NCBI GenBank assembly: GCA_963702535.1
Contig: CAVPDG010000007.1
Span: forward strand, 4,949-68,948
Direction: 5' to 3'
Length of the DNA stretch: 64,000 nt
From: an uncultured Chloroflexia bacterium
Lineage (GTDB): Bacteria; Chloroflexota; Anaerolineae; Anaerolineales; UBA4823
Positions 1,939-60,477 of this stretch are shown piece by piece. The notes below the pieces were generated by a model, which did not search any database, was not told where the DNA came from, and saw only the letters and a list, made by a program, of their open reading frames with translations. Position numbers and translations under genes: made by a program. Positions within the stretch are counted from its first letter, which is position 1. Each line of letters begins with the position of its first letter.

Positions 1939-3342
1939 CTAGATGCGGGCGTACTCAATGCCGGCAAGGTGGGCGACTTTCTCCAGGGTATCCGCCCAAC
2001 GCCCGTAAGCCAGCGCCTGGTGGTGCGAGCCGCCGGCGAGGCTGTAGCGGGTGAGGAAGTCAGAAAGGTCGCCATCCGGGCGGAACTTGTAATGTGGGCG
2101 AGCCAGGTCGGGGATGTAGGGGAAGTCGAGTACCTGCCCCTCGGTGACGATCATGCGCAGCCTGCCGTCCTGCACGGTGGTCAGGCTGAGCAGCGTGACA
2201 TCGCCGGGCTTGAGGCTGAAGGCAAGCAGGAGGGGATTATGTTTGACATCGAAGAGGCTGCCGATGGTGCTGCGCACGAGGTGGATGGGCTCATCCGGGC
2301 GCGCCATCTTCCAGTTGGCTTCGCCCATGTGCATCATCAGGGCGGCGTTGTTGGCGAAATCCATGGTGAACATCTCGGTGAAGTTGGCATCCCCCGCCAG
2401 GGCTTGCATCAGGCAGACGGCGGTGGCGCTGGTGACATCGCCCTCACCGCCGAAGCCGTAGCCCTCCGCCAGGAGCATCGAGGAGGCAAGGAAGGGCAGG
2501 GTTTCCAGGCGCCCCTCCTCGCCGACCGCCATGAAGTGCGAGGCAAAGCCCTGCATGCCGCGCTCATCCAGGAGCTGGCGCAACGCCCACTCCAGGCGGG
2601 CGCTGGCTGCGTACTCGTCTTCGGTGATCTCGGGATCAAACTGGAAGCGCTGGCGGTCTTCCTGCAGGCGAGCGGCGATGAGCCCGGCGGGTGCAGCCTG
2701 GGCGCGCTCAGCCAGGGTGCGCATCGAGAGGTGGTGGATCTCCACGCCGGTCTGGGTCAGGAAGGCGGTCTCATCCAAGCCAAAATCGCCCATGCCCTCC
2801 ATGGCGTAGCCGACCAGCCCAATGTGCGTGCGCTGAAGTTGGCGCACGAGGCGGGCGGCATCGCACCAGGCGCGCACCGCGGCGATCGTGCGCGGGTCGC
2901 GGGTGTGCCCGGTGACCACCTGGAAGGAGCGCCCGGCGCGCAGCAGGACATTGGCGAGGTCCTGGACGCCGTGCATGCCGTGGTTGCGGGTCGTGTCGTC
3001 GCCGGTCGTCCCGCTGGTGATTTCGTAGAGCTGTTGGGTGTTGAGGATCAGGATGGGCAGGCGGGTCTTGAGCAAGCCGCGCAGGGCGATATGGCTGGGG
3101 GCGTAGGTGAGCAGCACGACCAGCACCAGGTCTTTGCCCTCCGCTTCGAAGCGGCGCAGCGCCTCATCGACCTGCTCATGCGTGGTGCACACGCCGGGGA
3201 AATCGACCGCAGCGAAAGGGCTGAAAGCCTGCACAAGCTCGCCGGCGAACTGCGCCTCCTGGATCTTCAAATCGGGCCAGCGGTCGTACAGGTCGAACAT
3301 CAAGCCGATCATGCCCAGGCGGGCGCGGTTGGTTGCAGTCAT
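1939..3342 (-). CDS. L-arabinose isomerase (AraA) family protein
   Basis: 467 aa. GYGFGGEGDVTSA and GGSHHQALAYG resemble the AraA regions GYGFAGEGDWKTA and GGAHHTV, recalled from E. coli AraA. Confidence 0.75.
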   Translation of the reverse strand: MTATNRARLGMIGLMFDLYDRWPDLKIQEAQFAGELVQAFSPFAAVDFPGVCTTHEQVDEALRRFEAEGKDLVLVVLLTYAPSHIALRGLLKTRLPILILNTQQLYEITSGTTGDDTTRNHGMHGVQDLANVLLRAGRSFQVVTGHTRDPRTIAAVRAWCDAARLVRQLQRTHIGLVGYAMEGMGDFGLDETAFLTQTGVEIHHLSMRTLAERAQAAPAGLIAARLQEDRQRFQFDPEITEDEYAASARLEWALRQLLDERGMQGFASHFMAVGEEGRLETLPFLASSMLLAEGYGFGGEGDVTSATAVCLMQALAGDANFTEMFTMDFANNAALMMHMGEANWKMARPDEPIHLVRSTIGSLFDVKHNPLLLAFSLKPGDVTLLSLTTVQDGRLRMIVTEGQVLDFPYIPDLARPHYKFRPDGDLSDFLTRYSLAGGSHHQALAYGRWADTLEKVAHLAGIEYARI

Positions 3343-3354
3343 ATCTCATACCTC

Positions 3355-4854
3355 CTATGGCGCCGCCCCGGGGCGGGAGACCGCCGGGAGCAGCTCTTGA
3401 TAACGGTGATAAGCGCTTTCATAGGCCGCCTGTTGCTCGGGCAGCGGGGAATAGCGGCGCAGCTTGCCCTGCGGATGCGGGGCGTCGTCCAGCGAGGCGA
3501 AGGCGCCGCAGCCCACGCCGGCGATGACGGCTGCACCCCAGCCGGCAGCCTGCGTGACGGGCGGCACCTGCAGGTGGATTGCGCAGGCGCCGGCAACGAT
3601 CTGGGCCCAGATGCGGCTGCGGGCAGCCCCGCCGACCATGATCAGGTCATCCACGACAACACCATAGCGGCGGATGTCTTCAATCGCCCAACGCAGCTCG
3701 AAGGCGATGCCCTCCAGGGCGGCGCGCGCCAGGTCGTCACACGTGTGGTTAAGGTTCAAGCCGATAAAGCCGCCGCTGCCCATGCCGTAAGCCTCGGCGT
3801 GACCGCCCGCCAGGGGGAAGAAGAGCAAGCCGGATGCGCCGGGAGCGGCGCGGGTTGCGGCTTCATCCAGGTCACGGAAACCCAGGCGGCTGGCATCAGG
3901 CTGGCTCGGGGTGTTCCACAGGCGCTCGAGCAGCCATTCCAGCGACGAGCCCACGCCGCCCAGGCTGCGCAAGGCGCCCCAGCGCGCCGGGGCGGCGTGG
4001 CAGCTCACCGCCATGCCGCTCTTGAGTCCGGTCTCCAGGTCGGGTGGCGTGAGCAATAGCACCCATGCGGTGCCAGTGGAAAGCAGCATTGGTCCGGGGC
4101 GGGTGACTCCCAGCCCGACGGCGGCGCAGTACTGGTCGTGGGCGCCGTTGAAGAGCGGGGTGCCCTGGGGCAAGCCGGTGAGTCGGCTGGCTTCGGCGCT
4201 GAGCGCGCCGACCAGTCGCCCCGAGCGGCGCAAAGGCGATAACATTTCCGGGCGAATGCCCGCCAGGTCGAGCAGGCGCGGGTCCCAAGCGCCAGAGGCG
4301 ATCTCCAGGAGCTGGGTGATGCTGGCGTTTGAGGGATCCATGCACAGCTCGCCCACCAGGCGGTAACCGATGTAATCGTTGACGAAGGTGATATGGCGGG
4401 CGAGCGAGAAGACATCCGGCAGGTTGTTACGGAGCCAGCGGATGTGCATCAGCGGCAGGGCGGGCATGAGCGACCAGCCAGTGATGCGGTGGATCGCCTC
4501 TGCACCGAAGGATTCTTTGACCTGCAGGTATTCCTGCCGGGCGCGCTGGTCCATCCAGCTCATGGCGTTATACACCGGCTGCAGGGCAGCGTCGAGCGGG
4601 ATGGTGGTGCCGCCCTGGGAGGACAGCGAGATGCCCAAGACGGCGTCGCCAGGACCTAGGCTGTCTGCCACGGAGCGCAGCACAGCCACTACCGCCTGCC
4701 AGAGCGCCTGCGGGTCCTGCTCCACCCAGCCATCCTGCGGGGTGAGCAGGGTGTAAGACTGGCTGGCTTGCGCAAGCTGGCGCCCGTGCAGGTCGAAGAG
4801 CAGAGCTTTGGCGGCGGTGGTGCCGACATCCAGACCGATGAGGGTTTCCATCAC
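3355..4854 (-). CDS. FGGY-family carbohydrate kinase (xylulokinase/ribulokinase-like)
   Basis: 499 aa with N-terminal LIGLDVGTTAAKALLFD and C-terminal MVGGAARSRIWAQIVA, both typical FGGY motifs. Confidence 0.85.
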   Translation of the reverse strand: MMETLIGLDVGTTAAKALLFDLHGRQLAQASQSYTLLTPQDGWVEQDPQALWQAVVAVLRSVADSLGPGDAVLGISLSSQGGTTIPLDAALQPVYNAMSWMDQRARQEYLQVKESFGAEAIHRITGWSLMPALPLMHIRWLRNNLPDVFSLARHITFVNDYIGYRLVGELCMDPSNASITQLLEIASGAWDPRLLDLAGIRPEMLSPLRRSGRLVGALSAEASRLTGLPQGTPLFNGAHDQYCAAVGLGVTRPGPMLLSTGTAWVLLLTPPDLETGLKSGMAVSCHAAPARWGALRSLGGVGSSLEWLLERLWNTPSQPDASRLGFRDLDEAATRAAPGASGLLFFPLAGGHAEAYGMGSGGFIGLNLNHTCDDLARAALEGIAFELRWAIEDIRRYGVVVDDLIMVGGAARSRIWAQIVAGACAIHLQVPPVTQAAGWGAAVIAGVGCGAFASLDDAPHPQGKLRRYSPLPEQQAAYESAYHRYQELLPAVSRPGAAP

Positions 4855-4871
4855 GCATCCTGAAGCACAGG

Positions 4872-5739
4872 CTAGCCCTTGACGGCGCCAGCGGTGAGCC
4901 CCTGCACCAGGTATTTCTGGAAAAAGACGAACAAGATGACAACCGGGATGGTGACAAGGACGGAAGCCGCCATCACGTTAGGCCAGTTGAGGTAGAACTG
5001 CCCTACGAAGGACTGCAGGATGCCGGGCGGCAGGGTACGCATCTCCGGTTTGACCATCAGCGTGGCAGCGTACAGGTATTCGTCCCAGGCGATGAGGAAG
5101 GTATATACGCCTGCGGCAATCAGACCCGGGGCGATCATGGGCAGAACTACACGCGTCAGGGCGCCCATGCGGCTGCAGCCGTCGATCAGCGCTGCCTCTT
5201 CGATCTCTTTCGGGATGGTATCGAAGAAGCCCTTCAGAAATCCAGATGGCGAAGGGGATGGCAAAGGTGGTGTTCGCCAGGATGAGCGCCTCGTAGTGAT
5301 TGAGCATCTTGAGGCGCATGAAGGTCAGGTACAGGGAGATGAGCAGCATACCCTGTGGGAACATCTGGGTGCTGAGGATGCCGATCATGGTGCCGTTGCT
5401 GCCGCGGAAGGGGTAGCGCGAGAAGGCATAGGCTGCCAGCGTGGCAACCACCAGGCAGAGCATGGTGGTGCCGATGGTGACGATCAGGCTGTTCTTGAAA
5501 TAGACGGGGAAGAGGCTGCCACGCCCGTAGTCGCCGAAGATCACCGAGTTCATCGTGCTGAGCGTGGGGTTCTTGGGGATCCATTGTGGCGGGATGATAA
5601 ACAGGTCCTCGATGGGCTTGAAAGCAGACGAGATCATCCACAGGATGGGCAGGAAAGTGAAGATCAAAATTGCTACCAGGTATAGGTAGGAGAAGAACTT
5701 GGTCAGCCAACGCTTTTGATGAAGTGTAAGCATGATCAC
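4872..5739 (-). pseudogene. Carbohydrate ABC transporter permease (MalG/CUT1 type), frame broken once near 5238-5244
   Basis: ORF 4978..5739 is a good permease up to ...ANTTFAIPFAIW and then turns to nonsense. ORF 4872..5264 continues in another frame with FLKGFFDTIPKEIEEAALIDGCSR..., the EAA loop. Removing one base at TGGATTTCT restores IWFLKGFF. Confidence 0.85.
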
Positions 5740-6671
5740 AGCTCCAGTTTAGTGGTGCCGCCAATGATGCGCACGAAGACCACGCTGAAGATCAACATCG
5801 CCACCAGCCAGGTGGCGCCGATGGCAGCCCCCATGCCCATATCGAAAGCCTGGAAGGCGGTGCGGTAGATGCTGATTGCCAGGGTCGTTGTGGCGGTGAT
5901 GGGACCGCCCTCGGTCATCGTCCAGATGGTGGTGAAGCTCTGGAAGGTCCAGATGATGGAGATGAGCAGGTCGATCATGATGATGTAGCGCAGGTAGGGC
6001 AGGGTGATATAGCGGAAGCGTTGCAGGGCGGTAGCGCCGTCGATGACCGCCGCTTCGACGATATCGGTGGGGATGGTTTGCAGGGCAGCCAGTAGCACGA
6101 TCATATGGAAGGGAAAGCCCTTCCATATGTTCGCCAGGATGACGGAGAAGAGGGCGGTTTGGGGATTGCCGATCCAGGCGATGAAGTTGGGGATGATCCC
6201 CAGGCTGTTGAGGATGTAGTTGAACATGCCGTACTGCTGGTTGAAGATCCACTTCCACAATAGGGCGGAGACTACGGTCGGTACGACCCAGGGAGTGAGA
6301 AGCACGCCGCGGAACAGGTTGCGTGAGATGATGGACTGGTTGAGCACAATGGCTGTGATGAACCCCAACAGGAACTGCCCGGCAACCGAGCCAATGACGA
6401 AGATGATGGTGGTAACCCATACCTCCCAGTAAGCCGGGCTGGAGAGCAGCGTCTTGAAATTCTCCAAGCCGATCCACTGGACGCCCGCTCCCAGGTTTAC
6501 CAGGCTGTACGAGGTAAAGCTCAGGTAGATGCCGCGGATGAGCGGGTACAGCACCGTGAAAGTGAGGATGGCAAAGGTCGGAAGGAGGAGGAGGAGCGAA
6601 AATTGCGTATTGGTCAGGCGGAAGCCTTTGGAGCGCGGCCTGGAGGGTTCTACGGCTTGATCAACAGTCAT
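5736..6671 (-). CDS. Carbohydrate ABC transporter permease (MalF/UgpA type)
   Basis: 311 aa, polytopic, with an EAA-like TDIVEAAVIDGATALQRF. It overlaps the next permease gene by 4 nt. Confidence 0.85.
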   Translation of the reverse strand: MTVDQAVEPSRPRSKGFRLTNTQFSLLLLLPTFAILTFTVLYPLIRGIYLSFTSYSLVNLGAGVQWIGLENFKTLLSSPAYWEVWVTTIIFVIGSVAGQFLLGFITAIVLNQSIISRNLFRGVLLTPWVVPTVVSALLWKWIFNQQYGMFNYILNSLGIIPNFIAWIGNPQTALFSVILANIWKGFPFHMIVLLAALQTIPTDIVEAAVIDGATALQRFRYITLPYLRYIIMIDLLISIIWTFQSFTTIWTMTEGGPITATTTLAISIYRTAFQAFDMGMGAAIGATWLVAMLIFSVVFVRIIGGTTKLEL

Positions 6672-46272: not shown

Positions 46273-46323
46273 GAAAATTTGAAGACTGCGTGCGGCGGAG
46301 CCGGACGCAGTCTTCAAATTTTC
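46273..46323. terminator. 19-bp perfect inverted repeat at the high-GC / low-GC boundary
   Basis: GAAAATTTGAAGACTGCGT (46273-46291), a 13-nt loop, then ACGCAGTCTTCAAATTTTC (46305-46323). It begins 34 nt after the isomerase stop. Confidence 0.5.
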
Positions 46324-50699: not shown

Positions 50700-50873
50700 C
50701 TGGTGCTCACCATAAGCCGGCGATATTCTAATCCAACCAGTCCATTTGTTTTGTCACGGCTGTGCTCATAGCCGTTACCAGGGAAATTTGCGTGTCCGAT
50801 AGGTGTCTCCGGACTTCGAATTATAATTTTATCATTTCATACGTGGTTGAGTACCCTGGCTGCCGCATCAATG

Positions 50874-52181
50874 ATGGCTTTCTCAAGAAAGGGAATTACT
50901 TGCAATCAGCAAGGCGAAAGCTTCCTGAAGATGTCCGGCAAACCACCTTCGGGCATGAGCGGCATTCGTGAAACCGGCCATCTTGAGCAAGCCCAGAACC
51001 AGATTATGTACGATCGCAAGAATCCGTCCTGCCGCACCTTTGGTCATGCGAGTCGCATCTTCATGGAAAGTGACATCCCGCCGATAATGCAAGCCTGTTT
51101 CGATCAACGAATGTTTTCGTCTCACCGCAAGCACTTTTTCAGGCGAAGCTTTCTCCCTGGTGAGGCTGGTAATGCCGAACTCCACTTCACAACTGGTTTT
51201 GTAGACCTTCCCTGGCGTATCCAGGTGAACTTGCGCTCCAGGCGATACACTTGTCCTATCCCAGGCCAACCGAGATAGTCATTGAGCATGGCGCTCGTTT
51301 GGAGGGTGCGTTTTTCGATCCGTCCGTGTCCGCAGTTGACCTTTTCGGTGCCTTGAAAGTCGGTTGCGATCTTACCAAATCCAGGTTTGGGCTGGTCGGG
51401 GGCAAACAGGCGCTGAATATCTTCATACAGGCGTTCCTGGTTCTCCTTGACCGGCCACAGATAGTCGCCGCCTCGCTCAACAATGTGCGCCGAAATGGCT
51501 CGCTGCGTATGCATGGCATCGCCCGTGACGATTTTTCCCGCTATCGACACGTGCCCCAATGCTTTCGGCGCTGCAACAATCTCGTTTTCCTTGATATCTA
51601 CCACCTCCTGAGCTATCACGTGTTGGCTTTGTCCATCGTACACGCTCAAAACATGGTCGCCGCGTTCTTGATCAGCAACCCGTGTACCCCGCAACGTTTT
51701 GCCATCCATTGCCAGTGTTTCTCCGGTTTCATCAGCTTGCGGTTGGTGATACTCCTGCATCAGTTGCTCAAATTCGGCTTCGCTAATAATATCCTGGAAC
51801 ATCCGCCGGTAGGTGTTATGATGCGGCATCCAGCTACGGCGCAACTTCAACAACTTGGCCAATTCTTCCGCATGATTCTTGGCCCAATCGGCAATCGCTA
51901 CGGGTGTGTCCTGGTTGCACAGCTTTGCCAGAAAGATCAACACCATCAATGTCACCAGACTGTAACGTTTCCCTTTAGCCTTGCGCGGATCGCTAATCCG
52001 CTGAAAACGGTCATACAAGCTGCCAAGCGAATATACAATCCCTGTCTCACTGATCTCTTGCCAAAACTCAAGCGTGCTATACTCCATAAGATCCTCTCGG
52101 TGATTCGGCTGTTTAGACGCAACCAATTTTACCGAAGAGGATCATTTTGTCTACCTGTCAAGGTTTCTTGAGAAAGCCATT
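50874..52181 (-). mobile_element. ISAs1-family insertion sequence with 17-bp terminal inverted repeats and an 11-bp target duplication
   Basis: Left repeat ATGGCTTTCTCAAGAAA (50874-50890) and right repeat TTTCTTGAGAAAGCCAT (52164-52180). CCGCATCAATG flanks both ends (50863-50873 and 52182-52192). Confidence 0.8.
50883..52087 (-). pseudogene. ISAs1-family (H-repeat-associated, IS4-like DDE) transposase, frame broken once at 51210-51212
   Basis: MEYSTLEFWQEIS...DPRKAKGKRYSLVTLMVLIFLAKL...LAMDGKTLRG...IVTGDAMHTQR...YRLERKFTWIR, then in a second frame GKVYKTSCEVEFGITSL...HSLIETGLHYRRDVTFHEDATRM.... Adding one G (GGG to GGGG) rejoins the frames. Confidence 0.8.
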
Positions 52182-52208
52182 CCGCATCAATGCCAGCCCT
52201 CAAAACCG

Positions 52209-54224
52209 CTACTCACTGCATAAGATCGAAACGACCGTCTCATAGGCATAACCGGCGGGAGCATCCGGCTTCTTCTCGAGCTGGGCGCAGATGAAATCCT
52301 GGACGGTGAGGTCAGCCTTGAGCGCCTCAGCAAGCTGGCGGGCTTTCTCAACCTGACCGGCGCTGGCGTAGCCTTCCAGGAAGGGCATCCATTCCGATAC
52401 ATCGGATGGCGCCAGCCCTTTTTGCTCCGCCTCAGCGCCCAGCCTGGCAATGCCTGCCCAATCGCCGACCTGGCGGGCGAACCCCGCTTTTTGGTAATAG
52501 TAGCACCAGGTGTGCTGCGGCTCGCTGCCGAAGATCGCCTGTGGCGGGGTGGTAAAAGGTACGTCCGTCTTGATCAGGTCCGTCCTGGAGTATGGCGCGA
52601 ACGCCTGCACCAGCGGGTCTTCGGAGCTGGAAAGTTCGTATTGCTGCCTGTCGATCACGTGCAGGCAGGCGGCGCTATCCGGCATGCTCAGCACCAGCGG
52701 GCGGGCAAAATTGCGGTTGATCCAGATCTCGCGGTGCGTCTTGGGCTTGCGGATGCCGCCTCGCAGATAGGGCAAGAAGGAGCGGTCCAGGATCTCCCCA
52801 CTGAGGGTGGGGAACTCGGAATCGGGGTAATAGATCAGGTTCGCCGGCGCCCACGCCTGGTAGCCTTCGGCAAAATCGAGCAAGGAGGGTGGCTTCAAGA
52901 AGAGCAGCGTGGCTTTCTCCAGGCTCGGGGCGCGCCAGCTCAGCTGCCACCACACTTGTTTCTGGATGGTCCAGTCGTGCGCGCTTCATCAATGCCGCGT
53001 TGTAGTGCGCCAGCACCCCCATGCCGACCAGGATGGCGATCGCCCACGGGCGTAGCCGCGGTTTGATTGCCAGGAAAACCAGTCCGCCCAGCAGCAGGCT
53101 GGCGCCGATCATCGCCGGGAGGGTATAGCGGGCATCGCGCGCCTGGAAGACCACGTTGCGGTTGGAGAAGAGCACCGGGAGCAAGCCAAAGACAACGGAT
53201 AGCGCTCCGATCCAGACCCAGCTCAGGCTTACCCGGCGCTCCTCAGCGTTGGCTTGGGCTGTAGGTTTGCCGTAGCGGAAATACAGCCAGGGAGCCGCGC
53301 CCGCCAGCAAAGCGATGACCAGACCCGCCAGGAGCTGCTGGTAGCTGGGGTAGTACCAGTCGCGGTACAGCGGCACCACCCACGCCATGAATGCGCTCTC
53401 GATGAAGTCTCGCCCCATCTCGAGCGCCAGGCGGAGTAGCATACCGGCTTTATCGCTGGAGTAGGCAAGCAGCAGCCGGTCCACGTCGGTGGTGGGACGG
53501 GTGCTGTTGAAGAAGAAAAAGCGCCAGATGATAAATAATCCGCTCAGCAGGACGAACGGCGCCCACCAGAGCAGCAAGCGCAGCAGGGCTCGCTTGGGCG
53601 GGAGCTTCTCCCGGTTTTCCAGGGCGACCCAAAGCAGCATCAGGCGCAGCGCTTCGAGCCCCACGGCGTACTCCACCAGAAGCTGGTAGAGGAACATCAG
53701 CGTCAGGGAGGCGGCGTAGAGCAAGAGGATGACCGGCAGGCTCTTCAGCCGCGCGGCGTAGACCATCAGCCCGATGGAGAGGGTTGCCAGCAGCATGACC
53801 GTCAGCGAGACCTGGAAGGTGAGCGCCTGGGTCTGCTCCAGGAAGCCGGGATACACGGCGTAAAGCAGGGTCGCTGCGGTGGTCATTAACGTATGCTGGG
53901 GCCAGAGCATGCGCAGCAGCCAGAAGAGCGAAAAAACCATCAGCAGGCGCAAGAGCAGGGCGTAGAGGTGCCAGTGCAGCGGGCTCTCGCCAAGCAGGGG
54001 GTAGATCAGGGAGAACAGGTAGCCGATCGCCGGGCGGTCCTCGGCGAACATGGGGATGAAGTCTGCGCGCCCCGGGCGACGCCCGACCAGACGACGTACA
54101 GGTCTTCGAGGTAAAACCCGAGCTGGTGGATAAACGGTAGGTAAGCCAGCAGGGTGACGAACCCGACCAGCAGCGCAGAAAGCATGCCTTCATGCCGTGC
54201 GGGCTGCTCCAACCAACGTTTCAT
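52209..54224 (-). pseudogene. Large polytopic membrane protein, GT-C (ArnT/PMT-like) glycosyltransferase candidate with a soluble C-terminal domain, frame broken twice (about 54062-54070 and 52976-52984)
   Basis: Start at MKRWLEQPARHEGMLSALLVGFVTLLAYLP. Three frames concatenate: ...YVVWSGVARGA | DFIPMFAEDRPAIGYLFSLIYPLLG...(about 12 TM)...LAHYNAALMKRA | HDWTIQKQVWWQLSW...QHTWCYYYQKAGFARQVGDWAGIARLGAEAEQKGL.... Confidence 0.55.
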
Positions 54225-54293
54225 AGAGATTAAATTTATCCTATCTGACGGGATTTTATCCCTGGAAACCCAGGTTGAGGGAATCGCCGCGGA

Positions 54294-54333
54294 CCCCAAA
54301 ATCCGGGAATCATCACGGTAAATCCCAATCAGC
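54294..54333. repeat. Repeat-family module X, copy 1
   Basis: CCCCAAAATCCGGGAATCATCACGGTAAATCCCAATCAG is nearly identical to 59462-59500 and to the reverse complement of 58245-58283. Confidence 0.75.
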
Positions 54334-54354
54334 TAAAACCCAAAGCGGGGCGGT

Positions 54355-55626
54355 TCAAACCATAGCGAAGGATGCGTAGGTTGCGTATAGATAAGACGGT
54401 TTGCTGGGGAACAACGCCTCGATCAGATTGAGCAATTGCGGCTTGACAATGATGTCAGGCCAGGCATCCATCAGCTCGTCCAGTGTCCGGTGAGCCAACA
54501 GCAGGCGAACGAACGCCTCCGGCGGGATGCACAGTTCGCCGCCATCAGCACCCATCGAGGAGTCCACGAACCCCAGCGGTTCCACGCTCACCAACCTTCC
54601 CGCTAGAAAAGACAGCCGGTATGCCTGGCGGAACAGGTTGAGGGTGAGCTCTTGGGTCAGCCCGGAAAAGCCCGCTTCGAAAGCTCGTTTCTCGAATACG
54701 GGCGCCAGTTTCATCAGGAATTTTGGCAGATCGTGGAAATGGAACAGCCATTGTCCCACCAGGGTAGCATGGCTGCCGAGGCTGCGCGCCATGCGCGCCA
54801 GCGCAGACTCGTTCGGCCAAAACACCTGGATATCTCCGGTTGTGCGCAATTTGAGATGCTGCAGGATGGGCAGCGCTGCCTGGGCATCGAGCGTGGCGCT
54901 CTCTACCACGCTGAAACCGGGGATATCGGGGTGGGCGCAAGCCCCAAAATAGCCGCACGCCTCCCCGTTGTGGGCATTGATCACCAGTTCTACCGGGAAG
55001 CGCGCCTGTTCCAGCAGGTAGCGCCAGTGTTCGGGTGTGCGGGTAAGCGTTAGAGCGTAAGGCTGCATAGCCTGCCGGTACAGGTCCGTTAGCAGTTGGC
55101 AATCCGCAGCCGTCGCATTGCGGAACGAGTAAGCGCTGCCATTGGGTGGTTGGGCGTCCGGGATACGGCTGCTGGGCAGCGATTCATAACAATTGCCTTC
55201 GATGGCGTAGGCATACCCGTATTGCCGGTAGTAGTAGGGGATGCCCCAGATAAAGCTCAAATCATAGCCGCCTTCCTGCACGGCTTGCATGAACCTCCGG
55301 ACCAGGATTTTAATCAGCCCCTGGCGGCGGTAATCGGGGTGCGAGAGCACCTGCTCCATCTGGGCGGCGCGCAGGGGCACGCCTTCGAAGCCCATCTCCC
55401 AGGGGATCAGGCAGGTGGTGGCGACGATCTGACCGGTTGTTGCCTCTTCGATCAGCCAGAAGTTCTCGTAGCTCCCTCCGGGATAATTGCGCAACAGGAT
55501 GCCGGTATTCAACCCTTCATTAGGGTTGTTGTAGGTTGTATTGAATGCGACGTACTTTTGGATATCCGTCTCATCCCGCACCGTGCGTAGCAGTAAATCT
55601 TTTTCCAGCATCGTCACAGAACTCAT
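54355..55626 (-). CDS. Eis-like GNAT N-acetyltransferase with a C-terminal SCP2-like domain
   Basis: 423 aa. The GNAT core reads QMEQVLSHPDYRRQGLIKILVRRFM. Overall length and tripartite layout resemble Eis-type acetyltransferases. Confidence 0.6.
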   Translation of the reverse strand: MSSVTMLEKDLLLRTVRDETDIQKYVAFNTTYNNPNEGLNTGILLRNYPGGSYENFWLIEEATTGQIVATTCLIPWEMGFEGVPLRAAQMEQVLSHPDYRRQGLIKILVRRFMQAVQEGGYDLSFIWGIPYYYRQYGYAYAIEGNCYESLPSSRIPDAQPPNGSAYSFRNATAADCQLLTDLYRQAMQPYALTLTRTPEHWRYLLEQARFPVELVINAHNGEACGYFGACAHPDIPGFSVVESATLDAQAALPILQHLKLRTTGDIQVFWPNESALARMARSLGSHATLVGQWLFHFHDLPKFLMKLAPVFEKRAFEAGFSGLTQELTLNLFRQAYRLSFLAGRLVSVEPLGFVDSSMGADGGELCIPPEAFVRLLLAHRTLDELMDAWPDIIVKPQLLNLIEALFPSKPSYLYATYASFAMV

Positions 55627-55697
55627 CCCAGCACCTCCCCAGGAAGATCAGAAGGATCAGTCATATTTTTGAACTTGTCCGAAAATTCGTGGGGTTC

Positions 55698-55742
55698 CGA
55701 TTTTGAGGTGTGTGCAGCGAAGCCGCACACACCTCAAAATCG
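55698..55742. repeat. Perfect 18-bp-stem palindrome (repeat-family hairpin)
   Basis: CGATTTTGAGGTGTGTGC, loop AGCGAAGCC, then GCACACACCTCAAAATCG. It shares GGTGTGTGCAGCGAAGCC with 58275-58295. Confidence 0.8.
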
Positions 55743-55769
55743 TTTCTCCCATCCGTTTTTGGTAGATAC

Positions 55770-56831
55770 TTAGAGCGTATCCAGGTCTACCAGAGGCAGG
55801 CTCACAAGGCGATGTTCCGCGCTGGAGATGACTGCCGCCCAGCATGCCTCAGCCACGCGGATGGCGTCGATCGCTTTGCACAGTACCTTCCCCTCGCTTT
55901 TGCCCAATACCCAGTCCACAAATTCGCACACCTCCACATCCCAGGGTTCGGTGATCCCGGCGGTGTTATTCGGCATCCAGTTGGGGTACACGATTTCATT
56001 ATCCTGGTTGGTCGGATCGTTATATTGGGGTATGCTATCCAGGATCAGGCGGTTGTTGCGCATGGTGCCTTTGGTGCCATACACCTCGATATTGAAGTTG
56101 AAAGATGCGACTGGCTTGAGAACCAGCGACATTACCTTGCCGATCTGCCCGCTACGGAAACGATATAGAGCAACCGTCTCGGCTTCTGTCTCGCAGGTTG
56201 GGTAATTGAAATTGCTGACGAATGCGCAGCATTCCACGATCTCATCGTTCATCAGGTAACGGATGGTATCTACGCAATGCCCGCCGCCGGCGTGGTAAAG
56301 CGAGGGATTGAACTCTTTTTTGCCGATCCAATCCCAGATGGGGAGCTCATCTGGCAGGTTATGGATGTAATCGGATTGGGCAAAATAGATCTGCCCCAGC
56401 TTGCCATCCTCTCTCAACCGTACGATCTCTTTACAAATCGGGTTGAAGCGGCGGTGATAACCCACGGCGCATTTCACCCCAGACCTGGTTAATGCCGCAT
56501 AGGATGCCCGGGCTTCATCCGGGTTGGTGACGAAGGGTTTCTCGGCGAGGATATGCTTTCCGGCGTTGGCCGCGGCGATAGTAATCTCGCTGTGGAATTT
56601 ATTGGGGGCGCAGATCGAGACGGATTGCACAGTCGGATCGGCCAGGAGATCACGATAATCCGGGTAATATTTGCAATCCAGGCCGTTGGTCTGGATGAAA
56701 TCCGAGGCTGATTTTTGATTTGGGTCGGCGACAGCCACAACCTGCGCTTTTCCGCTGCGGCGGTACCCGCGCAGATGATGCCCGGCAATCCAGCCCGCCC
56801 CGATGATGCCAACACGAAGTCTGTCTTCCAT
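55770..56831 (-). CDS. Gfo/Idh/MocA-family oxidoreductase
   Basis: LRVGIIGAGWIAGHH..., the ILAEKPF motif, 353 aa. Confidence 0.85.
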   Translation of the reverse strand: MEDRLRVGIIGAGWIAGHHLRGYRRSGKAQVVAVADPNQKSASDFIQTNGLDCKYYPDYRDLLADPTVQSVSICAPNKFHSEITIAAANAGKHILAEKPFVTNPDEARASYAALTRSGVKCAVGYHRRFNPICKEIVRLREDGKLGQIYFAQSDYIHNLPDELPIWDWIGKKEFNPSLYHAGGGHCVDTIRYLMNDEIVECCAFVSNFNYPTCETEAETVALYRFRSGQIGKVMSLVLKPVASFNFNIEVYGTKGTMRNNRLILDSIPQYNDPTNQDNEIVYPNWMPNNTAGITEPWDVEVCEFVDWVLGKSEGKVLCKAIDAIRVAEACWAAVISSAEHRLVSLPLVDLDTL

Positions 56832-56888
56832 CTACGGCCTCCTGAAATTTGGAAAAACTCCCTTGGATCGGTAAATTTCTAGCCGGGC

Positions 56889-58220
56889 TCAATGACTCAG
56901 ATCGTGATAAATGAATTTGCGTGGGCCGGCGTGCGATAACTTGTACGGTGTGCGACCGCGCAGATCTTCCATCATCATGAACATGGTGTGCTCATCGAGG
57001 TGTTCCCAGCCTCTTTCATCGAAATAGTGTATCACTTCGATCGGCTCGGATGGGCCGAGCTGTTTGATCGTATCGAGGATTTTCTTATCCAGGTCCGTAT
57101 ATGACAGGGGTTGGACTTCCCCGCTTTCCACAAGTTGGATCGCTTCCTTTATGGTTGCTGCAACTTTGCGCGCCTTATCCGGCCAGATCATGTTATTGGT
57201 GTGCACGATGCGCGGGATTACATCCTCTGCCACCGGGCACAGGCCAACCGGGTAGTCCGTTATGCCGGAATAGATGCGGAACAAGTCGTATAGATAAGCA
57301 GGCACCTGCAGGAAACCGGTGCCGAAGGGTGCTTTTACCTGGCGGAGTGCAGCTTTAAAAGAATTGATCTCGATGCCCTTTCGTTCGCCATGGAAGAGGC
57401 AGCTCCAGAAATATGGCGCAATCACGTTGCCGGAGATCGGGAGGCGTGGATCGAGCCAGGCACAACCCGAAATAGCTTCATCCAAGATATCTGCAGAGGT
57501 TCGATATTCTTCCAGGTAGCCGGGGAGTTTCTTGAGCTGTGGCACGGCTACGGCTGCCGCAAATTCCGTCATGCGGTAGTTCGAGCTGAGAACTTCAGGG
57601 CTTTCGCCGAAGATGATACGGCGGTTGAGCTCGAAGAACAGCTTGTCGTCATTCATGATTGCCACGCCGCCCTCGCCGGTGGCGAGCTGCTTTACCCATG
57701 TTGAAGGAGAAATGTGCCGATATGCCCCCAGGTGCCTAACTTTCTTGCCTTTGTACTCGCCCAGGCAGGTGTGGGCGCAGTCTTCCAGCAGGTAAATACC
57801 GTGCCGGTCGCAGATCGCTCGCAGTTTATCCACCTCGGCGGCGTAGCCCCATAGATGTGTGACCCAAATTGCCCTGGTGCGGGGGGTGATGAGTGCCTCG
57901 ACCTTATTGGCGTCCATCAGGAAATTGTCCGGGCGGACGTCCGCCCATACCGGAGTCAGGCGGGTGTGCATGCATGCGATGCCGTGGAACTGCACCACCG
58001 GATCGCAGATGATCTCGTCGCCATCTTTCGCTCCGATGGCGCCCGGAATGGCTTGCATGAGCAGCATGGCGGTGGCAGCGGTGATGGCGTACTTTGCACC
58101 ATGGGCTGCGGCAAAGTCCTGGCGTAACTGGTCCATGAAACCCCCAGCATGATCGGCAAAGTCATTGCTTTCAATGACTTTCGTGAGATTTCTGATCTCT
58201 TCAAGCCCATATTTTTCCAT
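56889..58220 (-). CDS. DegT/DnrJ/EryC1/StrS-family PLP-dependent sugar aminotransferase with a ~70-aa C-terminal extension
   Basis: Start moved to MEKYGLEEIRN (ATG 58220), with AGGAGG upstream. It has DegT-like blocks. The region 57691-57729 is locally scrambled; see the finding on the three insertions. Confidence 0.8.
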   Translation of the reverse strand: MEKYGLEEIRNLTKVIESNDFADHAGGFMDQLRQDFAAAHGAKYAITAATAMLLMQAIPGAIGAKDGDEIICDPVVQFHGIACMHTRLTPVWADVRPDNFLMDANKVEALITPRTRAIWVTHLWGYAAEVDKLRAICDRHGIYLLEDCAHTCLGEYKGKKVRHLGAYRHISPSTWVKQLATGEGGVAIMNDDKLFFELNRRIIFGESPEVLSSNYRMTEFAAAVAVPQLKKLPGYLEEYRTSADILDEAISGCAWLDPRLPISGNVIAPYFWSCLFHGERKGIEINSFKAALRQVKAPFGTGFLQVPAYLYDLFRIYSGITDYPVGLCPVAEDVIPRIVHTNNMIWPDKARKVAATIKEAIQLVESGEVQPLSYTDLDKKILDTIKQLGPSEPIEVIHYFDERGWEHLDEHTMFMMMEDLRGRTPYKLSHAGPRKFIYHDLSH

Positions 58221-58244
58221 CGCAGACCTCCTGAATAATTTGGC

Positions 58245-58305
58245 CCATTGGGATTTACCTTGATGATTTCCGGATTTGGGGGTGTGTGCAGCGAAGCCCT
58301 CACAC
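58245..58305. repeat. Repeat-family module X (inverted orientation) plus a truncated hairpin, copy 2
   Basis: CATTGGGATTTACCTTGATGATTTCCGGATTTGGGGGTGTGTGCAGCGAAGCCCTCACACC, starting 25 nt upstream of the DegT start codon. Confidence 0.75.
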
Positions 58306-58508
58306 CAACAAGACACTCTTTTCCTGGACTCTCGTTGTTTATTATAGGTAATTGGCAAAGAATTGTCGTTAAAGTAAAGAGCATCAATCTCGTGTAGTTT
58401 GTTAAATATTCGGACATTTCGGATTTCTGGCAGGATATAATGGTCAAAATACTGAGAAAAGGGATCAGGCTTTACAGAGCAGCAGCCTGTGAAGTCCAAC
58501 CGGACAAG

Positions 58509-59414
58509 ATGAACAGCGAAGATGAACTCCTCTCCAAGTTGATATCGGCGTCTATTCTGCCTCCGCCAGCCTCAACAGCAAGCATCCACGTATCCCAGCC
58601 CGGATTCCAATTCAAATATCATTCCTATAACAATGAAGTGGAAATTGTGCGGGTACTGCATGGGACGAGTTTTGTGGGTATCAATAACCAATTTATCCGC
58701 ATCCAGAAAAACGAATGCCTGATCATTTTTCCCGGGGTCACGCATAACTACTTTCTCAGGGAAAATGAAAGCTGCAGGATGATCGACCTGGTATTTACAC
58801 CCGGTGATCTCTCGAGTTTTCACCCAGGCGAGCTGAAAAATCACCTGCCATTTCTACATGAGCTGCTGAACCCGAGGATTGAATTTACGCGGTTTGTGGA
58901 TGATGGTGGTGTCAGGATAGTTCTGGAGCATATCCTTGCCCAGTATGATCACCCTATCCAGCAATCCCGCATGCTCCTGAAAACACATTATCTGGAGCTT
59001 TACATCATCCTCTCAAAAGTCGTGGCGGAATCGCTCAGTGAGGCTGGTAGAGCACAAAATCAGTACATTAAGACTGGGCTGGAATTGATGGTGAATTTTT
59101 TCTCCACGAACCTGACGGTTGCGCAAATTGCAGGAGAAGCGGGGATTTCCACCAGGCATTTCTCCCGATTGTTTGTAAAGGAGGTGGGTATGTCTGTGCC
59201 CGATTACCTTAACCTATTGCGGATCAAGAAGGCAAAAGAGCTGCTGCTCAACACGGATATGGACATCACCCGCATCGCATTTGCCGTTGGCTATAACTCC
59301 AGCCAATACTTTACAACCCGTTTCAAACGGTTGGAGCATGTAAGCCCTAAAGTTTTTCGTGAAAAAATGGCTTTAATGATACCCGTCAGGTTAGATGATT
59401 CCACAGAGTATTAA
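58509..59414 (+). CDS. AraC-family transcriptional regulator (cupin sensor + HTH)
   Basis: The C-terminal tandem HTH reads VAQIAGEAGISTRHFSRLFVKEVGMSVPDYLNLLRIKKAKELLLNTDMDITRIAFAVGYNSSQYFTTRFKR. An alternative start at ATG 58440 is possible. Confidence 0.85.
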   Translation: MNSEDELLSKLISASILPPPASTASIHVSQPGFQFKYHSYNNEVEIVRVLHGTSFVGINNQFIRIQKNECLIIFPGVTHNYFLRENESCRMIDLVFTPGDLSSFHPGELKNHLPFLHELLNPRIEFTRFVDDGGVRIVLEHILAQYDHPIQQSRMLLKTHYLELYIILSKVVAESLSEAGRAQNQYIKTGLELMVNFFSTNLTVAQIAGEAGISTRHFSRLFVKEVGMSVPDYLNLLRIKKAKELLLNTDMDITRIAFAVGYNSSQYFTTRFKRLEHVSPKVFREKMALMIPVRLDDSTEY

Positions 59415-59421
59415 CAAGTAC

Positions 59422-59503
59422 CCGGATTTGGGGGTGTGAAGGCGGCGTAGCCGCCTTCACACCCCCAAATCCGGAAATCATCACGGTAAATCCCAATGAG
59501 CCT
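59422..59503. repeat. Perfect 25-bp-stem palindrome plus module X, copy 3
   Basis: CCGGATTTGGGGGTGTGAAGGCGGC (59422-59446), loop GTA, then GCCGCCTTCACACCCCCAAATCCGG (59450-59474), followed by AAATCATCACGGTAAATCCCAATGAG. Confidence 0.85.
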
Positions 59504-59544
59504 ATTAATGATGTTGATTATTGTTGTTTTTTGTAAAATAGTAG

Positions 59545-59631: not shown

Positions 59632-60477
59632 ATGCTCGCAGAGCTGAGAAGATTACGCATCGCTGAGTATGTGCGGCAGCATGAGAGCGGCGTCGTCACC
59701 GTTGCCGAGCTGGGCCAGTTGCTTGCCGTATCGGATATGACCATTCGCCGCGACCTGGCATTGCTGGAGCGCCAGTCGTTCTTGCGCCGGGTGCATGGCG
59801 GGGCGGTTGCCTACCTGCAAAACAACGGCGATAAATCATTCCTCTACCGCACCCGGCGCGCCGACCCGCAAAAGCAGATCATCGGCTGGCTGGCGGCGCA
59901 GCTTGTCAACGACGGCGACCGCATCATCCTGGACGCCGGCACCACCACCCTACAACTGGCGAACAACCTTACCTGTAAGAACCAGCTCACCGTTATCACC
60001 AACAACATCCCCGTCGCCAATGAGTTGGCGCAGTGCGGCAATATCCTCATCATCCTGCTTGGCGGCATCGTCAAGCATAACGAGTCCTGCACCGTGGGCA
60101 ACATGGTGCGCCAATCACTCTCCCTGCTCTCTGCGGATAAGTATTTTTTGAGCGCCACCAATTTCTCCCTGCGCATGGGCGCCATGGAGACCGATATGGC
60201 GGAGACGGAGGTCAAGCAAGCCATGCTGCGCTCTGCCAGCCAGACCATCCTGCTCGCCGACAGCACCAAGTTCGATGTCTCCGCCCTCATCCAGGTGGCG
60301 CCTCTCCAGCAGATCCACAAGATCGTCTGCGACGATGGCTTGCCGCCAGAGGCGATGCGGGCGATCGAAGCCGAAGGCGTGCAGGTCATCACCCCCAGCC
60401 GGCAGCCCTTCGGCGCGCTGCCCGAGCATATCCGTCTCCTGCTGGATTGCACCACGCCGTTGAAGGCGCTGGCATGA
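59632..60477 (+). CDS. DeoR-family transcriptional regulator
   Basis: 281 aa with VTVAELGQLLAVSDMTIRRDLALLERQSFLRRVHGGA, ILDAGTTTLQLA and LLADSTKF. Confidence 0.85.
   Translation: MLAELRRLRIAEYVRQHESGVVTVAELGQLLAVSDMTIRRDLALLERQSFLRRVHGGAVAYLQNNGDKSFLYRTRRADPQKQIIGWLAAQLVNDGDRIILDAGTTTLQLANNLTCKNQLTVITNNIPVANELAQCGNILIILLGGIVKHNESCTVGNMVRQSLSLLSADKYFLSATNFSLRMGAMETDMAETEVKQAMLRSASQTILLADSTKFDVSALIQVAPLQQIHKIVCDDGLPPEAMRAIEAEGVQVITPSRQPFGALPEHIRLLLDCTTPLKALA

Follow-up and report, generated by a model that had tools for sequence, protein, structure and literature searches.

Four intergenic repeats in an uncultured Chloroflexia bacterium as very probable copies of a miniature inverted-repeat transposable element family

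Introduction

A stretch of 64,000 nt from an uncultured Chloroflexia bacterium (contig CAVPDG010000007.1, positions 4,949 to 68,948; referred to here as the window, with position 1 its first letter) contains four neighbouring gene gaps that share a conserved module and long perfect palindromes. The gaps lie around genes of the GNAT, Gfo, DegT and AraC families, and the question raised by this locus is whether the repeats serve these genes or merely reside between them. A first-pass annotation made from the sequence had left the choice between REP/MITE-like elements, RNA stability or termination elements, and protein-binding sites specific to the cluster. It is very probable that the four sites are copies, decayed to different degrees, from a single Chloroflexota family of miniature inverted-repeat transposable elements (MITEs). 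The evidence is presented below, starting with the repeats as they appear in the window.

The repeated module and its hairpins

The conserved segment, module X, occurs three times in the window with at most three mismatches to a 36-nt consensus, at 54295–54330 (−), 58246–58281 (+) and 59463–59498 (−), as originally described. None of 100 dinucleotide-preserving shuffles yields a match (0 expected by chance), and a repeat finder returns the same module pairs as the direct repeat D14 (93%) and the inverted repeats I3 (52 nt, 90%) and I5 (45 nt, 87%).

The two long hairpins are also borne out. The 25-bp perfect stem formed by 59422–59446 and 59450–59474 is identical with inverted repeat I22 and has a DNA folding energy of −36.2 kcal/mol (z = −10.4), while the 18-bp perfect stem at 55698–55742 folds with −25.2 kcal/mol (z = −7.1). 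They rank first and third, respectively, in a perfect-stem scan of the whole window. The hairpin at 58270–58305 is truncated, as had been noted, and its fold is no better than that of shuffled sequences. The loop context TGCAGCGAAGCC, said to be common to two copies, has exact matches only at 55713–55724 and 58287–58298. A profile hidden Markov model built from 28 full-length copies of the element described in the next section finds only four sites (E ≤ 4e-4; next E = 2.1), called w54, w55, w58 and w59 in what follows, in agreement with the earlier statement that the 64 kb hold no further copies.

Structure of the intact element

Homologues were sought with 20 nt of module X (TGGGATTTACCNTGATGATT) in metagenomes and in a collection of genomes at one per species, which did not include the window's own genome. 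The genome scan gives 11 loci, five of which are true homologues and six chance matches in coding DNA. The homologues are located on three contigs of two ‘Chloroflexia’ metagenome-assembled genomes (MAGs), in one Anaerolineales MAG and on one 2.5-kb contig binned as Bacteroidetes; the Chloroflexia and Anaerolineales MAG loci with the whole element include L003, L004, L005 and L008. The metagenome scan gives 82 loci, about half of them from one sample series, Ga0209254. Once put in register, about 75 of the scan matches are homologous over the whole element. The Chloroflexi that carry it inhabit sediments, wetlands and wastewater.

The intact unit, GGGTCATTGGGATTTACCGTGATGATTCCCAGATTTGGGGGTGTGTAGGCGGC-GTA/TAC-GCCGCCTACACACCCCCAAATCTGGGTACTTCCACGGCGATTCCCAAAGAGCC, is a non-coding, imperfect palindrome of 109–111 nt. 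Intact copies range from 108 to 111 nt and variants from 38 to 85 nt. The left end (GGGTCATTGGGATTTACCGTGATGATT) and the right end read inward (GGCTCTTTGGGAATCGCCGTGGAAGTA) are imperfect terminal inverted repeats, with GGGTCATTGGGATTTACC and GGCTCTTTGGGAATCGCC as the outermost 15–18 nt. In a hand count on the consensus, the left end matches the reverse complement of the right end at 26 of the outer 36 positions and at 10 of the first 12. The termini enclose a 26–27-bp perfect palindrome with a 3-nt loop. The outer helices of the element are 93–98% paired, and the whole unit folds as a single long imperfect palindrome (−47 kcal/mol, z = −12.9).

As the register of the homologous copies shows this longer unit, module X consists of the left terminal repeat (27 nt) and, at the base of the hairpin, the outer 12 nt of the hairpin arm. 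The first-pass view of the module as a separate unit attached to hairpins is therefore given up. At L034 (2667–2775) both termini are of the left-end type, forming a nearly perfect 109-nt palindrome without the 8-bp duplication that is described below.

Target-site duplication and dispersal

With GGGTCAT... and ...AGAGCC taken as the element boundaries, the 8 nt just outside each end were compared in 50 unique complete copies. The flanking 8-mers are identical in 24 of the 50 and differ by one mismatch in a further 12, giving 36 copies with at most one difference. Permuted right flanks predict about 0.6 copies per class, or about 1.1 in total. The duplicated 8-mers are 78% A+T, compared with 46% in the surrounding loci.

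The genes that neighbour the element elsewhere are unrelated to one another and to the cluster in the window, and encode SIS, saccharopine dehydrogenase, kelch, HTH, phasin, fumarase, UvrC, RecX, Maf and ABC ATPase proteins. All but two of the 50 copies are outside long open frames, and several contigs have a pair of copies only a few kb apart.

Dispersal is also evident in the metagenomes X1–X6, which are public wastewater, sediment and freshwater samples with relatives of the window organism, the contigs of which were aligned to the window. Depth over 59414–59501 reaches 2342–6391 in X6, 438–1225 in X5 and 27–175 in X3, with sharp edges, against about 3–20 over flanks and genes. In X6, 217 contig pieces were aligned. 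Their outer flanks beyond the left end are heterogeneous, and beyond 59416 the sequence reads GGCTCTTTGGGAATCGCCGTGG, which is the canonical right end. The bins that hold the 55.7-kb hairpin (X4 and X6) and the 54.3-kb copy (X6) are over-represented as well.

Relatives also appear to differ in the presence of the element, as judged from alignment differences in X6 and X2. One X6 contig lacks 59392–59511 and has 26 other letters instead, with a single TATTA-like site kept. The contig is thereby 94 nt shorter, which is close to the length of the element together with a single flanking repeat and looks like an insertion polymorphism. In X2, one contig skips 54248–54365. In the X6 lineage without w59 the AraC frame would end seven codons earlier, owing to 14 divergent nt beside the element and not to the element itself. 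The locus represented by L025 (111 nt) and L082 (69 nt) is found with and without 42 nt of the hairpin.

Two further observations concern the contigs themselves. L058 (1–160, −) differs from L032, which represents the same locus, by a second MITE of opposite orientation directly after the first and sharing its TAAATCTA duplication; this second MITE is a putative tandem or nested insertion. In addition, many contigs end inside the element.

The central palindrome

The inner stem is 97.3% paired in the full-length alignment and 18 of its 27 pairs have changed on both sides, which none of 500 shuffles reaches. Sliding the partner columns destroys this pairing. The outer helices vary on one side only. 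The first-pass remark that both arms had changed together, made on the two hairpins of the window, thus holds family-wide across the full-length copies. Relative to the consensus there are 45 compensated pair changes and 28 one-sided ones, of which an estimated ten or so come from the outermost pair. Divergence per site is 7.0% in the inner stem and 3.8% in the termini. What is conserved in the termini is thus the sequence, and in the core the structure.

The loop is found equally often as GTA and as TAC (10:10), and rarer loops likewise occur in both orientations. Its orientation differs between same-locus contigs of different samples, namely L013 and L051 (99.6% identical over 2.4 kb) and L003 and L061. 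The hairpin itself is frequently lost. Thirteen of the 50 complete copies have a 38-nt form, in which an 8-nt direct repeat (GATTCCCA) marks the junction of the left and right ends, and seven others have different internal deletions, so that the hairpin is deleted in about 40%. The 38-nt hairpin-less copies keep their target duplications.

Quasipalindrome template switching is an established mutational mechanism, known from Escherichia coli and yeast models (PMC7202029). It transfers a change from one arm of an inverted repeat to the other, so that the arms change together and remain fully complementary. For the present family the mechanism is proposed from sequence patterns only. Hairpin-templated correction during replication would be the likeliest origin of the perfect arms, possibly helped by selection for the hairpin. 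The same pattern could also result if hairpins were selected for or if a small number of perfect master copies had been amplified. A stronger proposal, that the palindrome is kept perfect, flipped and re-made because a hairpin or cruciform of any sequence is required for recognition or movement by an enzyme or host factor, is considered unlikely. No autonomous partner was seen among the roughly 75 copies. If true, the proposal would mean that the core of this MITE is specified by structure and not by sequence.

The conserved pairing might instead indicate that the repeats are primarily RNA elements, acting as transcript-end, stabilizing or processing hairpins and spread by that function. The w59 and w55 hairpins are very stable, their pairing is kept through changes in both arms, and w55 is intercistronic while w59 lies 8 nt past a stop codon. 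However, the stems are not followed by a T-run (the tails are AAATCATC and TTTCTCCC), and a terminator scan flags none of the four copies. Rfam matches are all below the gathering score, being microRNA-hairpin look-alikes and STnc540 at 23–29 bits against cut-offs of 38–80. Moreover, G-T intermediates are few except at the outermost pair, the orientation is not fixed, two of the four window copies do not fold, and the frequent loss of the hairpin among complete copies points the same way. An RNA function as the primary role is therefore very unlikely. A putative stabilizing or processing side effect of the two intact hairpins on the DegT-Gfo-GNAT and AraC transcripts is possible.

Relationship to known repeat families

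The Correia elements of Neisseria, the enterobacterial ERIC/IRU elements and the pneumococcal RUP elements are bacterial MITEs with a long internal palindrome. The Chloroflexota element resembles what is generally known of them: a length of about 100–150 bp, no coding capacity, terminal inverted repeats, a duplication of fixed length, many intergenic copies, a hairpin when single-stranded or transcribed, and internally deleted size variants. It differs in its unrelated sequence, its hosts, the AT-rich 8-bp duplication, and a perfectly paired 26–27-bp stem that changes in both arms together and flips its loop; nor has a parent insertion sequence been found for it. Searches of the literature for the sequence string and for MITEs in Chloroflexi or Anaerolinea returned no description of the family, which seems to be undescribed, though of a well-known kind.

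Repetitive extragenic palindromes (REPs) and bacterial interspersed mosaic elements (BIMEs), spread by REP-associated tyrosine transposases (RAYTs) acting on single-stranded hairpins, are similar in other respects. They too are intergenic, palindromic and multi-copy, with a strongly conserved structure and variable stem sequence. REPs are described as 20–40 bp long; they begin with GTAG or CGTC as a head and do not duplicate their target (PMC3733652). The element in question is 109 nt long and has asymmetric terminal repeats of 27–36 nt and 8-bp target-site duplications, and it keeps these duplications in the 38-nt copies that lack a hairpin. No GTAG/CGTC head was noted on reading the element, without a formal check, and no Y1 (RAYT) transposase is among the Pfam families listed for the window (for 1–54 kb, the best 25 of 50). 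Spread by RAYT is very improbable. Of the combined REP/MITE-like option in the first-pass annotation, the REP half is contradicted by the duplications and the length of about 109 nt, whereas the MITE half is upheld by terminal repeats, 8-bp duplication, dispersal and apparent presence/absence differences.

The four copies in the window

The cluster consists of minus-strand genes of the GNAT (54355–55626), Gfo/Idh/MocA (55770–56831) and DegT (56889–58220) families, followed by plus-strand genes of the AraC (58440–59414) and DeoR (59632–60477) families. The identities previously guessed for the GNAT, Gfo, DegT and AraC genes are correct, as is the placement of all four copies in gene gaps of the cluster. 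Alignment scores given below refer to a null of random window segments.

Copy w54 (54274–54334, −; profile E = 1e-10, alignment score 75, null maximum 32) occupies the gap that separates the stop codon of GNAT from the start of the following minus-strand gene. Both ends are kept, the left as module X and the right as CCGCGGCGATTCCCTCAACC on the − strand, and the central hairpin is deleted, a structure like that of other hairpin-deleted copies such as L080, and the fold is no better than that of shuffles. The first-pass annotation had recognized this copy at 54294–54333, an extent too short in that it left out the right end of the element and the flanking duplication. The latter is a direct repeat of gaaaccca (54266–54273) and aaaaccca (54335–54342), both read on the + strand and matching at seven of eight positions. 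Relatives in X1 and X2 have w54 with a 2-nt insertion.

The relic w55 (55688–55751; alignment score 60, null maximum 32; profile E = 3e-4 on either strand) is found after the stop codon of Gfo/Idh/MocA and before the start codon of GNAT. Its hairpin is of a diverged subfamily, with the 18-bp stem at 55698–55742 and an inner GC-GAA-GC, and only traces of the terminal sequences remain. Metagenome depth at w55 has a bin mean of 61–66 and reaches 166–302 at variant sites, where flanking bins are mostly about 3–5. Other copies show a paired variant, 55706 A>T with 55734 T>A. The X1 and X2 relatives carry w55, and X2 also carries w59.

Copy w58 (58242–58311, +; profile E = 1e-13, alignment score 90) is situated 20 nt upstream of the DegT start codon, within the divergent DegT/AraC spacer. 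It retains the left end, the left hairpin arm and a w55-type loop. The right arm and right end are degenerate, no stable fold is formed, and a remnant may possibly extend to about 58345. A contig of an X6 relative begins inside w58, at 58280.

Copy w59 (59416–59502, −; profile E = 1.5e-27, alignment score 140) lies directly against the AraC stop codon. Its left end and the complete 25-bp hairpin (loop GTA on the + strand) are present, and 8 nt (GGGTACTT) follow the hairpin; the canonical right end, some 22 nt, is absent. TATTAA is found on both sides, at 59409–59414 and 59503–59508, and the left TATTAA contains the AraC stop.

The placement of all four copies in gaps of one cluster, with two of them flanking the AraC gene, could suggest operators for AraC- or DeoR-family regulators acting over the GNAT/Gfo/DegT cluster. 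The copies, however, occur in both orientations relative to the downstream gene, one relative apparently lacks w59, and other Chloroflexi have the same sequence next to unrelated genes, where it is flanked by target duplications of its own; it is present, too, in hundreds of contig pieces in single metagenomes. The first-pass annotation had named hundreds of randomly distributed copies, as of a generic REP element, as a refuting outcome, and by this criterion the cluster-specific reading is refuted. Operators are an extremely improbable explanation. Equally so is a composite MITE-bounded transposon at 58242–59502 with the AraC gene as cargo, for although its ends are a 52-nt inverted repeat of 90% complementarity bracketing that gene, and a left-left version of the small element exists (L034), there is no common outer 8-bp duplication (AATAATTT and TATTAATG match at 4/8), the hairpins of w58 and w59 are of different subfamilies with distinct loops, and one relative apparently keeps the AraC gene without w59.

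The search for a parent transposase

A Pfam screen of 132 frames (up to 800 codons) picked from related loci revealed no parent transposase. Viral contigs scanned with four end patterns gave only chance coding matches, and a plasmid BLAST gave no match. Three candidates were considered individually and rejected.

The first is an IS1182-family transposase adjacent to the module in L002. On other contigs, close homologues of this transposase are bounded by the ends of that family (GGGGCTGTCC...GGACAGCCCC) and lack the module, and L002 (1880–1990, −) is therefore seen as an insertion of an IS1182-family element, with a transposase of about 542 aa, into the MITE hairpin. Elements of this family are very common on contigs of about 2 kb. 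In L096 a direct duplication of about 78 bp (1820–1897 and 3673–3750) flanks the same kind of element.

The second is an IS110-family transposase gene located just inside the MITE left end in L073 (573–2123). This family makes no terminal repeats or 8-bp duplications, and the gene is more likely to be an insertion beside a MITE remnant. The hairpin in L073 is replaced by GGGCAAAGGGGTTTGGGGTGCAC...GGCTCCCAATCT. The same replacement segment is present in L022 (800–1013), where the downstream sequence is different, and the replacement may be a targeted insertion into the palindrome.

The third is the ISAs1/IS4-like element of the window (51122–52126), the 17-bp ends of which (ATGGCTTTCTCAAGAAA) are unrelated to the MITE. 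Its DDE_Tnp_1/DDE_Tnp_1_assoc transposase is the only transposase family among those listed for the window.

The IS groups ISL3, IS6, IS256, IS1595 and ISKra4/ISMich2 are characterized by 8-bp duplications and GG...CC ends. The MITE shares the 8-bp duplication and the GG-starting termini with these groups, and differs in that no transposase gene bounded by its termini was found; no family is assigned. The right end, GGCTCTTTG, may resemble ISL3-family ends (GGCTCTT), a lead for which a literature search with the string gave nothing usable. Several DDE families would be consistent with an 8-bp duplication and GG...CC ends.

Weight of the evidence and proposed mechanism

Several points weigh against the copies being a MITE family. 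None of the four window copies is intact, and only at w54 is there a convincing duplication (7/8). No autonomous element with the same termini was found among the roughly 75 copies or in the window. The depth ratios describe whole communities and not the copy number of the source genome. The same-locus loop flips could in principle be assembly artefacts at a perfect palindrome, and the counts of compensatory changes include changes inherited within subfamilies.

A MITE family nonetheless remains the explanation that we favour, and its history may be envisaged as follows. A DDE-type transposase supplied in trans would bind the terminal repeats and move the element, and insertion into AT-rich intergenic DNA would duplicate 8 bp of the target; of this scheme the termini, the duplication, the copy number and the dispersal are observed, and the enzyme is postulated. 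The sequence of the palindrome drifts faster than that of the termini, and template-switch correction would keep or restore its symmetry. Intramolecular events may flip the loop, and slippage or hairpin processing may delete the core, giving the 38-nt and other short forms. Four copies would cluster in this part of the window because its lower G+C and AT-rich spacers are the preferred site type of the element. If the DegT-Gfo-GNAT and AraC genes are affected at all, this would be incidental.

For annotation, this removes a false regulatory lead for a sugar-modification cluster, and masking of the module and palindromes as repeats of one family is advisable. The element also explains assembly breaks of these Chloroflexi at such sites. 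In terms of mobile-DNA biology, the copies provide a clean natural data set on the survival of long perfect palindromes in bacterial genomes, in which concerted change of both arms, loop flip-flop and recurrent deletion can be followed, including same-locus pairs in different states. The family further marks AT-rich, lower-G+C variable regions in uncultured Anaerolineae-like bacteria of wastewater and sediments.

Other features of the window

The second-longest perfect palindrome of the window, at 46273–46323, was considered as a fifth member and rejected, since it scores 26, which does not exceed the null range, and the related metagenomes do not contain it. It has a 19-bp stem (GAAAATTTGAAGACTGCGT) with an inner CGGC-GGA-GCCG, lies in a gene gap with A/T runs at both feet, and looks like a bidirectional terminator.

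A complete-looking insertion sequence occupies 50863–52192. Its perfect 17-bp terminal inverted repeats are located at 50874–50890 and 52164–52180, and a flanking direct repeat (CCGCATCAATG) at 50863–50873 and 52182–52192. The transposase gene (DDE_Tnp_1_assoc and DDE_Tnp_1, 51122–52126, −) may be frameshifted, as there is an overlapping second frame at 50883–51269 (−). The stretch at about 46.2–52.2 kb, which holds this insertion sequence, has the lowest G+C of the window (0.45–0.53). Contigs of the closest relatives, in X1 and X3, match the window up to 46238 and continue with unlike sequence. The stretch is probably a strain-specific island.

Two overlapping minus-strand frames, 52675–54051 and 53450–54193, have no Pfam match, and the X1 and X2 relatives carry an extra C after 54061 at full depth. 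The window gene at 52675–54193 is probably frameshifted in a C/G run, as a pseudogene or by sequence error. Within the DegT gene, the X1, X2 and X6 relatives lack single bases at 57694, 57713 and 57741, three 1-nt differences in 48 nt, and the segment 57694–57741 looks like a locally shifted and restored aminotransferase reading frame.

Finally, the window contains a second, diverged pair of DeoR-family and FGGY-kinase genes (38.3–39.4 against 60.8–61.9 kb, and 43.4–43.9 against 59.9 kb). The direct repeats D2 and D8 have a constant spacing of 22475 and 70–77% identity, and D3 links the two DeoR genes.

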